Below, piece by piece: positions 60,681-62,146 of a stretch of 64,000 bases of DNA (its first letter is position 1; every line of letters begins with the position of its first letter). This DNA comes from Escherichia phage HY126. The position numbers were made by a program, and so were the translations under genes. Under the pieces are notes generated by a model. It did not search any database. It saw nothing but the letters and a program-made list of their open reading frames with translations, and was not told where the DNA came from. The stretch lies in the sequence record PP658200.1. The stretch is one strand, 5' to 3'.

Positions 60681-60724
60681 TGATGGTCCTTAGAAAGTAG
60701 GTTTATTGTTTACTATATTTATAC

Positions 60725-60752
60725 AAAAAAGCCCCAACCTTTCGGAAGGGGC
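60725..60752 (-). terminator. intrinsic terminator (downstream of tRNA/small-RNA region)
   Basis: Minus strand GCCCC-UU-CC-GAAA-GG-UU-GGGGC hairpin followed by U6. Confidence 0.7.
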
Positions 60753-60780
60753 TATATACCTTGTCGGGGTTTCCACCTAC

Positions 60781-61056
60781 TAAGGCAAGTGTTTGTACGA
60801 AACGCCGGGATTCGAACCCGGTTATTAAGCAGTTGACGCTACTCAATATTTTTAAAAGGCCATATCTCGACCATATCCGAACGTTCCGTCAAAAACGCTA
60901 CTCGGCTTACGGCAAAGATATTTCCTCGAATCGATAATTCTTTGCGCCGTTTCTGCTGTGATGTAAGGGGATATTAACAAATCATAAAGATTTATTAAGA
61001 CCAGTCCTTACTCAGGGAACATCAGTCCGACGACTTGCCGGTAGCGACCCGGCTTC
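60781..61056 (-). ncRNA. candidate structured stable RNA / degenerate tRNA region
   Basis: No credible ORF; canonical T-arm CCGGG-TTCGAAT-CCCGG (about 60814-60830) with partial acceptor pairing but no clean anticodon arm; separate 11-bp stem hairpin at about 60921-60962. Confidence 0.3.
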
Positions 61057-61401
61057 TTATTTTGACATATCATCAATTTGTTCTCTACGTCTACGCCATA
61101 GATTAATTACTTCATCAACACATTCAGCATTTGGTATATGACGACAATAGTATAGTGATTCGCGTTTCTGGAACCGATGTTGTAATGGAATTTCGTTTAA
61201 AAGGTCTTTACGGTCAAAGTATTCAAAACTAGTTAACCCGGAACGGTTTTTAAGAAACTTCCAATGTCCGAATTCATTTTGAAAATAGACATAATCAGCA
61301 TGCTGATACAGCGAATTAATTAACCTATCGGAAATAACTGTTTCACGTTCGTTAAAATAAAACGTTAAGTCATGAACTACCAGATAAATATTGCCTTTCA
61401 T
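61057..61401 (-). CDS. hypothetical protein (about 114 aa)
   Basis: Start refined to MKGNIYLVV with GAGGAAAAT SD. Confidence 0.5.
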   Translation of the reverse strand: MKGNIYLVVHDLTFYFNERETVISDRLINSLYQHADYVYFQNEFGHWKFLKNRSGLTSFEYFDRKDLLNEIPLQHRFQKRESLYYCRHIPNAECVDEVINLWRRRREQIDDMSK

Positions 61402-61480
61402 ATTTTCCTCACTTAAAGTTGGTGCCTCTAGAAAGATTTGAACTCTCACCATTAACCTTAGAACGATTATATGCTATCCA

Positions 61481-62146
61481 TTACACTATAGAGGCAATTA
61501 AATTATTTACAATATCTTCTTTATAAACTTCAGCATAATGAAGTTCATATATTTCCCATCCTAATGATTTTATAATATCATGGCGTTCTTTATAATAAGG
61601 GGCCAAAATCTTTTTCTTAGGATTGGAGTAATGTTGGTTTCCATTAACTTCAATAATAATCTTTTTATCTATTAAAGCAATATCCGTGCAATACGCTCGG
61701 TTTTTAACCGGTTGGTATTCTTCAATAAATGAAATTCCGTTTTCTATTAATTTAGATTTCAAAAATTCACAAGGCACAGATTTAAATTTTGTATTTTTCT
61801 TCCAAGGATGTTTATCAGGGTTTTCATTCAACCATTTTTTCCGAGCATTAGATATTTTTATTCTAGATTCCTCAGAGTGTTCTCTACCTAATGAAGCGGC
61901 TGACAATTTTTGTCTAGTCTCTTCCGAAATTACTACAGGGACACCAGTCTTTTTAGATACAACATACTGGTTTAAATTACCTGAAGCTATACGTGCTTTA
62001 TTCATTGCTGCAATGGCTGATTTAGAACTTTCTTTATACAATTCCAATTTAGGGTTGGATTTACACCATCTAGTGTGGTTAGCCATCCATCCTTTAGGTT
62101 TATTAGAAATATCAAATTCCATATTACAATGTTTACAAATGCTCAT
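61481..62146 (-). CDS. homing-endonuclease-like protein (NUMOD3 motifs + Vsr/DUF559-like nuclease domain)
   Basis: Two NUMOD3-like repeats (SEETRQKLSAA, SEESRIKISNA), N-terminal Cys/His cluster, C-terminal …IIIEVNGNQH…KERHDIIKSLGWEIYEL… like DUF559/Vsr endonucleases; start refined to MSICKH. Confidence 0.65.
   Translation of the reverse strand: MSICKHCNMEFDISNKPKGWMANHTRWCKSNPKLELYKESSKSAIAAMNKARIASGNLNQYVVSKKTGVPVVISEETRQKLSAASLGREHSEESRIKISNARKKWLNENPDKHPWKKNTKFKSVPCEFLKSKLIENGISFIEEYQPVKNRAYCTDIALIDKKIIIEVNGNQHYSNPKKKILAPYYKERHDIIKSLGWEIYELHYAEVYKEDIVNNLIASIV

Follow-up and report, generated by a model that had tools for sequence, protein, structure and literature searches.

In the 64,000-nt stretch of Escherichia phage HY126 DNA analyzed here (the window), the interval without credible ORFs at positions 60781-61056 is occupied by two adjacent minus-strand genes for stable non-coding RNAs, which we identify with high confidence as orthologs of rnaD and rnaC of phage T4, with a predicted tRNA-like maturation. 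This confidence covers the identity, the gene structure and the tRNA-like maturation, and does not extend to function. The T4 RNAs have been known since the 1970s and are made from the tRNA operon; the genes described here are the phage copies of these already known RNAs. The features of the locus are the following.

60725-60752, minus strand: intrinsic terminator of the tRNA operon, based on its fold and homologous to the hairpin after T4 rnaC
60758-60795, minus strand: conserved 3′ trailer, CAAACACUUGCCUUAGUAGGUGGAAACCCCGACAAGGU, 92% identical to T4
60796-60934, minus strand: rnaC homolog (T4 species 1 RNA), 139 nt, based on alignment to T4 and a covariance model
60805-60821, minus strand: rnaC T-arm, CCGGG-UUCGAAU-CCCGG, unique in the window
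60823-60848, minus strand: rnaC P3, 10-bp hairpin with loop L2, CGUCAA (60838-60833), based on covariation
60857-60926, minus strand: rnaC P2, long bulged arm with base AGG/CCU, based on covariation within sequence types
60927-60933, minus strand: rnaC P1 5′ strand, CGAUUCG, pairing with 60804-60798 (CGUUUCG)
60935-60940, minus strand: rnaD/rnaC spacer, GAAUUA, based on alignment (AAAUUA in T4)
60941-61060, minus strand: rnaD homolog (T4 species 2 RNA), about 120 nt, based on alignment to the T4 annotation
61057-61401, minus strand: 114-aa ORF (phrog_3355) between tRNA-Arg and rnaD, from the ORF list
61420-61495, minus strand: tRNA-Arg(UCU), from ARAGORN and the Rfam tRNA model (56.3 bits), upstream member of the rnaD/rnaC transcription unit

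Gene order and operon context

A sequence-only reading of this DNA had treated the interval as a single region and had raised the possibility of a homolog of the stable RNAs of the T4 tRNA cluster, to be checked by alignment. The alignment bears out the homology and resolves the region into two RNA genes and a conserved trailer. T4 is annotated in the order tRNA-Arg, rnaD and rnaC, with which the window aligns base for base; rnaC is identical to T4 rnaC (NC_000866 70908-71046) at 137 of 139 nt over its full length and without gaps (98.6%), rnaD to T4 rnaD (NC_000866 71053-71171) at 102 of 120 nt (85%), and the trailer reaches 92%, compared with 70% for the neighboring tRNA-Arg. Gene conversion via the homing endonucleases of the tRNA region, and not purifying selection alone, could account for part of this high identity (PMC2330249).

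Along the minus strand, the order is tRNA-Met, tRNA-Asn, an ORF, tRNA-Arg, a second ORF, rnaD, rnaC, trailer and terminator. As in T4, rnaC lies in the tRNA cluster, on the strand of the tRNA genes, 3′ of tRNA-Arg and rnaD and 5′ of the operon terminator, and is the last gene before the trailer. This order and the homology to T4 place rnaD and rnaC in one transcription unit with the upstream tRNA-Met, tRNA-Asn, tRNA-Arg and the two ORFs. In T4, the tRNA cluster yields one transcript of ~1.75 kb that ends after the species I gene (PMC2330249), and RNAC is visible by Northern blot (PMC9697503). A homolog of the 114-aa ORF is annotated in phage 55, and neither Pfam nor PHROGs pointed to an RNA partner when searched with the flanking ORFs.

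The trailer directly follows rnaD in Dhakavirus VR5 and in phage CUA3, both of which are devoid of rnaC, and may help in forming the 3′ end of the operon transcript. Downstream of it, the terminator is the hairpin GCCCCUUCC-GAAA-GGUUGGGGC, which runs into U6. In this phage the stem contains two U.U mismatches, and owing to its interruption a simple terminator scan leaves it unflagged.

Structure of rnaC and rnaD

As the sequence-only reading had stated, the region is highly structured: the 341-nt minus-strand RNA folds with z = -5.32 relative to shuffled sequences, the rnaC part alone with z = -4.55 and the rnaD part with z = -3.03. A covariance model built from 20 rnaC homologs matched positions 60793-60934 with 161 bits (E = 9e-34), its sole other match in the window being tRNA-Asn. 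For the comparative structure we used 29 distinct rnaC homologs, drawn from nine or more phage genera, in which 93.2% of the cells are paired, compared with 35-44% in slid controls, and 17 pairs are changed on both sides; as the homologs are phylogenetically related, shuffle controls overstate the significance. From this comparison we infer that rnaC adopts a cloverleaf topology with a kissing-loop pair and without an anticodon arm, and the minimum free energy fold of the window copy has the same four-arm topology.

The acceptor-like stem, P1, has seven positions: C-G, G-C, A-U, U.U, U.U, C-G and G-C. Only a partially pairing acceptor stem had been proposed from the sequence; an acceptor-like stem is indeed present, and the better version pairs 60933-60927 with 60804-60798 through five Watson-Crick pairs and a tandem U.U, the latter kept in all 29 homologs. 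At the third pair, 10 of the distinct homologs have A-U and 19 have G-C. The adjoining T-arm (60821-60805), correctly recognized from the letters as perfect, is the only match in the window even when two mismatches are allowed, with 0 expected from 100 shuffles; its middle stem pair is G-C in 12, U-A in 16 and U-G in one of the homologs. The anticodon arm, whose clean form had been found wanting, is absent from the comparative structure of all 29 homologs.

P2 ends in a hairpin that pairs 60898-60893 with 60886-60881 around loop L1, UUGACG (60892-60887), and four of the five pairs of the L1 stem are changed on both sides. Across homologs the arm occurs as two unrelated sequence types of equal length (64-66 nt), each of which covaries internally. 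In P3, 9 of 10 pairs are changed on both sides. L1 and L2 (CGUCAA) are perfectly complementary, and the six L1-L2 pairs are 100% paired in the 29 sequences. In the four Marfavirus-type sequences the loops read UUGGCG/CGCCAA, which replaces one A-U pair with G-C; the covariation of the kissing loops is thus that of one pair in one lineage, the remaining five pairs being invariant. According to this model, P2, as a 65-nt bulged arm, and the 10-bp P3 hairpin would be locked together by the 6-bp pairing of UUGACG with CGUCAA. The GG at 60861-60860 is a candidate D-loop analog, and a GG/T-loop elbow is possible in the model; the support for this contact comes from four sequences, perhaps of one lineage, in which loss of the contact is equally possible. 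The two substitutions that separate rnaC of this phage from that of T4 are both compatible with the structure, one falling at a mismatch position of P2 and the other changing a U-A pair of P3 to U-G, and the T-arm, the kissing loops and the acceptor-like stem are identical in the two phages.

Other pairings were considered and rejected. The alternative acceptor helix between rnaC positions 46-53 and 131-138 is perfect in T4 and in the window, but lacks covariation and is worse than shuffled columns. A helix joining the 5′ strand of rnaC to the T-loop (GAUUCGA/UCGAAUC) arises from the self-complementary UUCGAA and is absent in VR25 and in Winklervirus-type sequences. An independent 11-bp stem-loop had been placed at about 60921-60962; this location was mistaken, as the only perfect inverted repeat nearby has 7 bp (GCAAAGA/TCTTTGC, 60912-60918 with 60939-60945), and the corresponding hairpin, which straddles the rnaD/rnaC boundary, is no more stable than shuffled sequence (z = -0.5) and has no counterpart in T4. 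What does occur is an 11-nt inverted repeat, matching at 9 of 11 positions, between 60857-60867 and 60916-60926, where it forms the base of the long arm of rnaC.

As in T4, rnaD lies directly 5′ of rnaC behind a 6-nt spacer and shares with its T4 counterpart the 5′ hairpin, the long-range helix and the internal-loop sequences; its 5′ and 3′ thirds are near-identical to T4, whereas the tip sequence of the long hairpin differs. The predicted parts are the 5′ hairpin GCCGG-GUCGCUA-CCGGC (61053-61037), a long-range helix in which GUCGUCG pairs with CGGCG(C)A, and a long hairpin that carries bulges and varies at its tip. In this model rnaD is rod-like. In the consensus fold of 11 homologs, 93% of the cells are paired, compared with 34-48% in slid controls, and eight pairs are changed on both sides; the long-range helix is invariant and consequently draws no support from covariation. 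At the 3′ end, this phage has GCGCAAAG and T4 has GCGCACCA, so CCA is not encoded. The 5′ end was set by alignment to the T4 annotation and overlaps the TAA stop of the upstream ORF (61059-61057). In T4, this end abuts the 3′ end of tRNA-Arg; here, the 114-aa ORF (61401-61057) intervenes, so the 5′ end of rnaD must form differently. When a T4-like phage was evolved on a semi-permissive host, only one mutation was common to every line, and it was a SNP in the rnaD homolog (PMC12685909).

Distribution and tRNA-like maturation

The region matches 801 phage records of T-even type, some of which annotate rnaC and rnaD. Differences among homologs include 1-nt indels and compensatory stem changes. 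The two genes are neighbors in the E. coli-type T-even genera Tequatrovirus, Mosigvirus, Gaprivervirus and Dhakavirus, and among the phages compared rnaD was not found outside these four genera and CUA3. In Karamvirus, Gelderlandvirus, Winklervirus and Erwinia phage COW86c, rnaC sits flush between tRNA-Trp and tRNA-Gly or between tRNA-Phe and tRNA-Trp, with spacers of ~3 to 9 nt. The tail reads U-CCA in Marfavirus where T4 has U-ACA, the final CA being invariant, and the T-loop consensus is absent from Winklervirus-type sequences. A loose pattern applied to IMG/VR (AGCGTCAAC...GGTTCRANTCC) returned mostly unrelated tRNA-like sites and a handful of rnaC genes, while a P1-strand pattern combined with the covariance model as a filter yielded nine further rnaC homologs and no new lineage. 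A stricter pattern found 12 loci in metagenomes, all of which belonged to lineages already covered. When applied to bacterial and archaeal genomes, the P1-strand pattern gave at least 120 matches, and the other rnaC motifs occurred in none among the matches listed.

RNase P and the 3′-trimming enzymes recognize their substrates by the upper half of a tRNA. In rnaC, the acceptor-like stem would stack on the canonical T-arm to form such an upper half, and the U-ACA after the stem takes the position of N73-CCA in a tRNA. With its seven-position stem and the directly adjoining 5-bp T-stem, rnaC has the 12-bp geometry of an RNase P substrate, as judged from structure, flanked by the leader GAAUUA(U) and the tail U-ACA. 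Since the paired ends and the T-arm of rnaC resemble the upper half of a tRNA, the RNA would be excised and stabilized as tRNAs are, and since rnaC lies flush between tRNA genes in other genera, it is very probably matured like a tRNA. In this phage, we infer both the transcript ends of rnaC and its cleavage by RNase P: the predicted cut at the 5′ end would fall in or adjoining the GAAUUA spacer, and rnaD would be freed as the structured piece between tRNA-Arg, or here the inserted ORF, and rnaC. The maturation of T4 species 1 RNA is said in old reports to depend on RNase P. The suggestion that the region is a processing substrate is compatible with these features, as the T4 RNAs are cut from the tRNA-operon transcript (PMC2330249) and rnaC adjoins tRNA genes elsewhere.

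The likeness of rnaC to tRNA (RF00005) comprises the T-arm, the seven-position acceptor stem, the tail of a discriminator plus xCA and the location in a tRNA array with tRNA-like spacers. In contrast to tRNA, it has neither an anticodon arm nor a D-stem, is 139 nt long and carries a tandem U.U in the acceptor stem; lacking an anticodon, it is unable to decode. The tRNA and Rfam scan proposed for the region retrieved no tRNA with ARAGORN and no Rfam family at the gathering score, the only match being tRNA-Sec at 16.6 bits against a threshold of 47, and permissive Rfam thresholds likewise gave no meaningful family. For rnaC in particular, RF00005 gave no match even at E up to 10.

tmRNA (SsrA) is processed by tRNA enzymes, as rnaC would be. 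Both form an acceptor stem (P1 in rnaC) from the two RNA ends next to a canonical T-arm, have a D-loop analog (a candidate one in rnaC) without a D-stem and replace the anticodon arm with a large insert held by tertiary loop pairing. They differ in that rnaC has no G3.U70, its third pair being A-U or G-C, and ends in ACA instead of CCA in most lineages; ARAGORN found no tag reading frame, and no Rfam tmRNA match was obtained. The bacterial Y-RNA-like RNA YrlA, like other tRNA-mimicking ncRNAs a modular non-coding RNA with one module mimicking the acceptor/T-arm half of tRNA, is likewise similar to rnaC, whereas its ends form the Ro-binding stem and not an acceptor stem. Neither an Rfam match to YrlA or Y RNA nor a Ro/Rsr gene annotated beside the locus in the records of phage 55 and T4 was found.

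Possible functions and alternative explanations

Reviews and recent papers call the function of rnaC and rnaD unknown (PMC12685909, PMC9697503, Uzan and Miller), and our literature search on phage tRNA mimics, species 1 RNA and its RNase P processing, and tRNA-like RNAs of Tevenvirinae retrieved no functional study. Among possible functions we favor, though only tentatively, a role of rnaC as a stable mimic of the tRNA top half that binds and either titrates or scaffolds a host or phage protein that recognizes tRNA. That rnaD might be a rod-like protein-binding RNA affecting fitness on particular hosts is a guess.

The possibility that rnaC is a degenerate tRNA or tRNA pseudogene, with the T-arm and acceptor-like stem as relics of a decaying, functionless gene, had been considered in the sequence-only reading, and we regard it as extremely unlikely. 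The canonical T-arm and the weak tRNA-Sec match (E = 2.9) would suit it, as would the CUUUUAA motif, which resembles a tRNA-Lys anticodon loop, and a GenBank record that labels the 3′ two-thirds of a homolog as a 94-nt 'tRNA-Lys'. Nevertheless, ARAGORN reports no tRNA and every tRNA model stays under its threshold; the tRNA-Sec acceptor pairing is the rejected helix of positions 46-53 with 131-138, which does not covary, fares worse than shuffles and is mismatched at one pair in 17 of 29 homologs, and on which the 'tRNA-Lys' call presumably rests as well. The CUUUUAA motif is not kept, reading CUUAUCUAA in Karamvirus and CUUUGAA in Gelderlandvirus, the arms without tRNA likeness covary and keep their length, and rnaC is 98.6% identical to T4 where the adjoining real tRNA-Arg is 70% identical. 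Just as hard to credit is the view, implicit in many GenBank records, that the region consists of small protein-coding genes: several records place one to four hypothetical proteins under the match, and TTG-started ORFs of 42 to 58 aa occur on both strands. The sequence-only reading had seen no credible ORF, and rightly so, as the only overlapping frames are TTG-started ORFs of 42, 47 and 58 aa, there are no ATG starts, 1-nt indels fall within these ORFs among close relatives and the changes are compensatory in RNA stems; moreover, the T4 annotation has RNA genes at this place, and RNAC is seen on a Northern blot (PMC9697503).

Among explanations that accept stable RNAs, a purely cis-acting role, in which the segments direct processing of the tRNA precursor and protection of its 3′ end and persist as by-products with no role in trans, is unlikely in our judgment, if less so than the other alternatives weighed here. 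It accords with the position of the RNAs in T4-type phages, where they are the 3′-terminal elements of the operon ahead of the terminator, with the persistence of the trailer where rnaC is lost, with the dispensability of each RNA in some lineages (rnaC in Dhakavirus VR5 and CUA3, rnaD outside the five groups named above) and with the lack of any reported trans function in papers on the T4-type RNAs (PMC12685909, PMC9697503, Uzan and Miller). However, in Karamvirus, Gelderlandvirus and Winklervirus rnaC is placed amid the tRNA array, as any tRNA gene would be, instead of closing the operon; the invariant loops, constant arm length, invariant tandem U.U and xCA tail exceed what a processing spacer needs; and the adaptive SNP that arose convergently in rnaD on one host suggests that the RNA acts in trans or in a host-specific way (PMC12685909). 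We consider it less probable still, and quite unlikely, that rnaC, rnaD or both are trans-acting sRNAs or sponges that pair with host or phage RNAs. A precedent exists in the 3′ETS-leuZ spacer RNA of E. coli, an sRNA sponge from a tRNA operon, and both RNAs have conserved single-stranded stretches (GGACUGA and AGAAA in rnaD, the A-rich linker ending in AAAAU in rnaC); additionally, in the clade with both RNAs, GAAACG of rnaD is complementary to the rnaC 3′ strand CGUUUC. Against this, our analysis yielded no target, most invariant nucleotides are tied up in intramolecular structure, no Rfam sRNA match rises above noise and, according to Uzan and Miller, a trans-acting regulatory RNA of T4 has never been characterized. 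It is very improbable that rnaC is a tRNA-like RNA that can be aminoacylated and, like tmRNA, enters the ribosome or binds EF-Tu. The topology of the tmRNA domain, with an acceptor stem formed by the ends, a T-arm and the GG as a possible D-loop analog, and the U-ACA or, in Marfavirus, U-CCA tail with its invariant CA speak for this reading, but the identity pair G3.U70 is replaced by A-U or G-C, ARAGORN detects neither tmRNA nor a tag reading frame, most lineages end in ACA instead of CCA, the mature 3′ end of the T4 RNA is annotated one nucleotide after the discriminator, and Winklervirus-type sequences are missing the T-loop consensus. A tRNA-Lys decoy, an idea derived from CUUUUAA in the rnaC linker, was also rejected, as the motif is not conserved outside T4-type phages.

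Returning to rnaC as a mimic of the tRNA top half, a broader version joins the two RNAs. The mimic, made of the acceptor stem, T-arm and elbow, with the lower half forming a ring of fixed size locked by the kissing loops, would titrate or redirect a host tRNA factor, such as a tRNA-directed defense nuclease or sensor or a processing or repair enzyme, while rnaD would act as a host-range determinant, the pair constituting an RNA module for counter-defense or host takeover. We hold this combined proposal to be rather doubtful; if true, such a module would have gone unrecognized for about 50 years.

As a scan result the locus is ordinary, since the T4 versions of rnaC and rnaD have been in the literature for decades and appear in the annotation of the T4 reference genome. 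In most GenBank records of related phages, however, the two genes are unannotated, lie under spurious 'hypothetical protein' ORFs or, in one record, are partly called as tRNA-Lys, and rnaC is left without annotation in the GenBank entries for the phages nearest to this one. Because neither RNA has an Rfam family, annotation pipelines miss both. The comparative model presented here provides concrete mutants and pull-down baits with which to test the long-debated function of rnaC and rnaD, and could seed Rfam families.

The rnaD-rnaC locus

In the T4 reference annotation, tRNA-Arg is followed immediately, in the same orientation, by two misc_RNA genes, rnaD ('species 2 RNA', T4 71171-71053) and rnaC ('species 1 RNA', T4 71046-70908). 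The window aligns base for base with both, and, judged by sequence, the finding is an already known RNA gene pair. Every gene around it is carried on the minus strand, in the following order:

62373-62299, minus strand: tRNA-Met (ARAGORN and Rfam)
62292-62221, minus strand: tRNA-Asn (ARAGORN and Rfam)
62152-61481, minus strand: 223-aa ORF
61495-61420, minus strand: tRNA-Arg(UCU) (ARAGORN and Rfam), for comparison 70% identical to T4
61401-61057, minus strand: 114-aa ORF, next after tRNA-Arg
About 330 nt, minus strand: no credible ORF, between the 114-aa ORF and the terminator hairpin
61060-60941, minus strand: rnaD, 102/120 (85%) identical to T4
60940-60935, minus strand: rnaD/rnaC spacer
60934-60796, minus strand: rnaC, 137/139 (98.6%) identical to T4
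60795-60758, minus strand: conserved trailer, 92% identical to T4
60752-60725, minus strand: terminator, a hairpin followed by a U-run
60680-60054, minus strand: 208-aa ORF, last in this order

The terminator hairpin 3′ of the trailer is homologous to that of T4. Mapped through the alignment, the interval 60781-61056 marked by the sequence-only reading comprises the two RNA genes and 15 nt at the 5′ end of the trailer, and its guess of a T4 stable-RNA homolog proved correct. The lack of a credible ORF also held, and the strong structure was borne out by the fold of the minus-strand RNA of 60720-61060 (-120.6 kcal/mol versus -90.1 +/- 5.7 for shuffles; z = -5.3). The T-arm it described, CCGGG-UUCGAAU-CCCGG, is the 3′ part of rnaC (60821-60805, minus strand) and is unique in the window at up to two mismatches, with 0 occurrences expected by chance. 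The 11-bp stem-loop placed at about 60921-60962 was not found; nearest to it are two other inverted repeats. One, a perfect 7-bp repeat (60912-60918/60939-60945), spans the rnaD/rnaC boundary, is no more stable than shuffled sequence (z = -0.5) and is absent in T4, where the sequence is GCACCAA. The other, an 11-nt repeat with 9/11 matches (60857-60867/60916-60926), closes the long arm of rnaC at its base.

The region agreed with T4 rnaC and rnaD in all membership tests runnable here, except that an ORF inserted at the 5′ end of rnaD alters the local arrangement. Matches to the region occur in about 800 phage records; Escherichia phage vB_EcoM_JS09 is 100% identical to the window in this region, and phage 55, a close relative, is placed in Mosigvirus. 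ARAGORN called no tRNAs in the window beyond tRNA-Met, tRNA-Asn and tRNA-Arg, and the Rfam scan suggested as a check returned just these three at gathering score and no other family; at E values up to 10, the best extra match was tRNA-Sec, with 16.6 bits against a threshold of 47.

The 223-aa ORF between tRNA-Asn and tRNA-Arg has weak matches to NUMOD3, DUF559/Vsr-like, RAP and a PHROG homing-endonuclease family, and at its 3′ end it runs into tRNA-Arg, covering the initial 15 nt of that gene (61481-61495). It is probably a homing endonuclease of a different family at the position of T4 segB. The inserted 114-aa ORF that separates rnaD from tRNA-Arg belongs to phrog_3355 and matches DUF2654 weakly. 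Its TAA stop (61059-61057) overlaps the position of the rnaD 5′ end in T4; three loci from T-even-type phages (L008, L014 and L059) carry another ORF at this spot.

Comparative structure of rnaC

Homologs of rnaC were gathered with BLAST searches of annotated phages and with a covariance model, and IMG/VR and metagenomes were scanned for sequence patterns. The set holds 35 copies (29 distinct), all 137-141 nt long, from Tequatrovirus, Mosigvirus, Gaprivervirus, Karamvirus, Winklervirus, Gelderlandvirus, Kanagawavirus, Moonvirus, Marfavirus and unclassified relatives. A pattern scan of bacterial and archaeal genomes gave nothing rnaC-like among the matches listed (at least 120). The helices are located in the window as follows:

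60933-60927 with 60804-60798, minus strand: P1, CGAUUCG with CGUUUCG
60926-60857, minus strand: P2, a long bulged arm ending in a covarying hairpin with terminal loop L1 (UUGACG, 60892-60887)
60848-60823, minus strand: P3, a 10-bp hairpin with terminal loop L2 (CGUCAA, 60838-60833)
60821-60805, minus strand: P4, the T-arm

Over the 29 sequences, 93.2% of the cells of this model are paired versus 35-44% with partners slid by 1 to 3 columns, and 17 pairs have changed on both sides, including 9/10 in P3 and 4/5 in the L1 stem; the homologs are mutually related, so the shuffle controls are generous. Folded by itself, the window copy also has the four-arm topology in its MFE structure (z = -4.55), and the covariance model scores 161 bits on the window. 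The third pair of P1 is A-U in 10 and G-C in 19 of the distinct sequences, while its tandem U.U is invariant; 3′ of P1, a U is followed by ACA (CCA in Marfavirus), in which CA never varies. Two sequence types of P2 exist that are unrelated and equally long (64-66 nt), with covariation inside each type.

L1 and L2 are perfectly complementary, and their kissing helix is paired in 100% of the 29 sequences, with a double compensatory change to UUGGCG/CGCCAA in the four Marfavirus-type sequences. An internal loop close to the junction contains a GG (60861-60860) that changes together with the T-loop: four sequences with CG have UGCAUNC in place of UUCGAAU, by which G.U becomes C-G at the equivalent of tRNA G18-Psi55. 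This co-variation fits a tRNA-like elbow and could equally reflect a contact lost in that lineage; the kissing loop and the elbow each draw on one or two lineages. Winklervirus-type copies (loci L132 1126-1268, L139 326-468, L158, L208 and L222) have CG at the junction and the T-loops UGCAUCC, UGCAUUC or UGCAUGC; thus, the UUCGAAU consensus is dispensable for the role of rnaC in these phages.

rnaD, the trailer and the distribution of the two genes

The rnaD consensus fold, built from 11 homologs, contains a 5′ hairpin (RCCGG-GUCGCUA-CCGGY, with covarying R and Y), an invariant long-range helix (GUCGUCG/CGGCG(C)AC) and a long bulged hairpin whose tip has been swapped for unrelated sequences with pairing retained; 93% of its cells are paired and 8 pairs have changed on both sides. 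rnaD is not tRNA-like. Its 3′ end is ...CACCA in T4, ...CAAAG in the window and CAG, CCG or CCU in other phages; an encoded CCA is therefore no general trait of the family.

The GAAACG of rnaD (60946-60951, minus strand) is perfectly complementary to CGUUUC in the 3′ strand of rnaC P1 (60799-60804, minus strand), and the two are paired in the MFE fold of the whole region. The covarying P1 position is U in the rnaD-bearing clade, which keeps the complementarity, and C in clades without rnaD. This pattern may stem from folding of the precursor or from contact between rnaD and rnaC, and it could be mere shared ancestry.

The trailer (ACACUUGCCU..AGGUGGAACCCCGACAAGGU; 60758-60795, minus strand) is as conserved as the RNA genes, and it directly follows rnaD where rnaC is lost (loci L005 and L006, about 1630-1670). 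Part of the T4 trailer, CCCCGACAAGGUU, resembles the terminator 5′ strand, CCCCGACCGAAAGGUU, which makes an alternative trailer/terminator pairing conceivable. Here a tandem U.U mismatch interrupts the terminator stem (GCCCCUUCC/GGUUGGGGC), which is fully paired in T4 (GCCCCGACC/GGUUGGGGC); the interruption caused the terminator to be missed by a simple scan.

In Karamvirus, Gelderlandvirus, Winklervirus and Erwinia phage COW86c, rnaC is placed like a tRNA gene inside the tRNA array, between tRNA-Trp and tRNA-Gly or tRNA-Phe and tRNA-Trp with a gap of about 3 to 9 nt to either neighbour, and rnaD is absent at these loci. Dhakavirus VR5 and phage CUA3 have rnaD, the trailer and the terminator, with rnaC precisely missing. 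rnaD was found in Tequatrovirus, Mosigvirus, Gaprivervirus, Dhakavirus and the unclassified phage CUA3 only. This separate occurrence indicates that rnaC and rnaD are independent modules.

PV648359 and related 'LF82' phage records match a 481-nt query in two places, which points to an additional, incomplete copy of some of the region at another site in these genomes. In Klebsiella phage F48 (Marfavirus; locus L131, about 1125-1195), a tRNA and rnaC are separated by a GC-rich hairpin, GGGGUGG...CCCACCCC, about 70 nt long; this hairpin has no obvious sequence similarity to rnaD and may be another small structured RNA in the place of T4 rnaD.

Maturation and possible roles

In T4, the tRNAs and both stable RNAs derive from a precursor transcript of about 1.75 kb that spans the whole tRNA cluster and stops past the species I gene (PMC2330249). 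RNAC has been seen by Northern blot, and RNAC and RNAD were classed as late-accumulating (PMC9697503). Given the T4-like gene order and terminator in the window, co-transcription of rnaD and rnaC with the operon is taken as established by homology. The upper half of rnaC would combine a P1/P4 stack and a possible elbow with a single-stranded leader and an xCA tail, the form that RNase P and 3′-trimming enzymes recognise, which would lead to tRNA-like excision and stabilisation; rnaD would be the structured remainder between the upstream element and rnaC.

We tentatively consider rnaC a stable mimic of the top half of a tRNA that may bind a tRNA-recognising protein. That the pair is merely operon furniture acting in cis seems unlikely, and a base-pairing sRNA or sponge improbable. 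A chargeable tmRNA-like RNA is very hard to uphold: rnaC shares the topology of the tRNA-like domain of tmRNA, and the region nonetheless failed the tmRNA tests, as it did the tRNA tests. The degenerate tRNA also raised by the sequence-only reading is scarcely credible. An alternative acceptor pairing between rnaC positions 46-53 and 131-138 is perfect in T4 and the window, and the weak tRNA-Sec match rests on it, yet this pairing lacks covariation and performs worse than shuffled columns. rnaC has no anticodon arm and is therefore neither a decoder nor a decayed tRNA. In phage 55 (locus L002, 3232-3325), the 3′ two-thirds of rnaC is misannotated as a 94-nt 'tRNA-Lys', which presumably rests on the same alternative pairing; a Lys-like CUUUUAA motif in rnaC is not conserved. 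We give practically no credence to small ORFs; in many T-even-type records, the two RNA genes are overlaid by 1 to 4 'hypothetical protein' CDSs, and few records name the RNAs.

The function of these RNAs was called unknown by Uzan and Miller (2010), by Wolfram-Schauerte et al. (2022) and in a 2025 evolution study (PMC12685909). In the latter, a T4-like phage was evolved on semi-permissive E. coli, and the sole mutation common to all lines lay in the rnaD homolog, which is the only functional hint. The discovery value of the present finding is low and its added value modest: the structure model makes a 50-year-old question of function easier to test.
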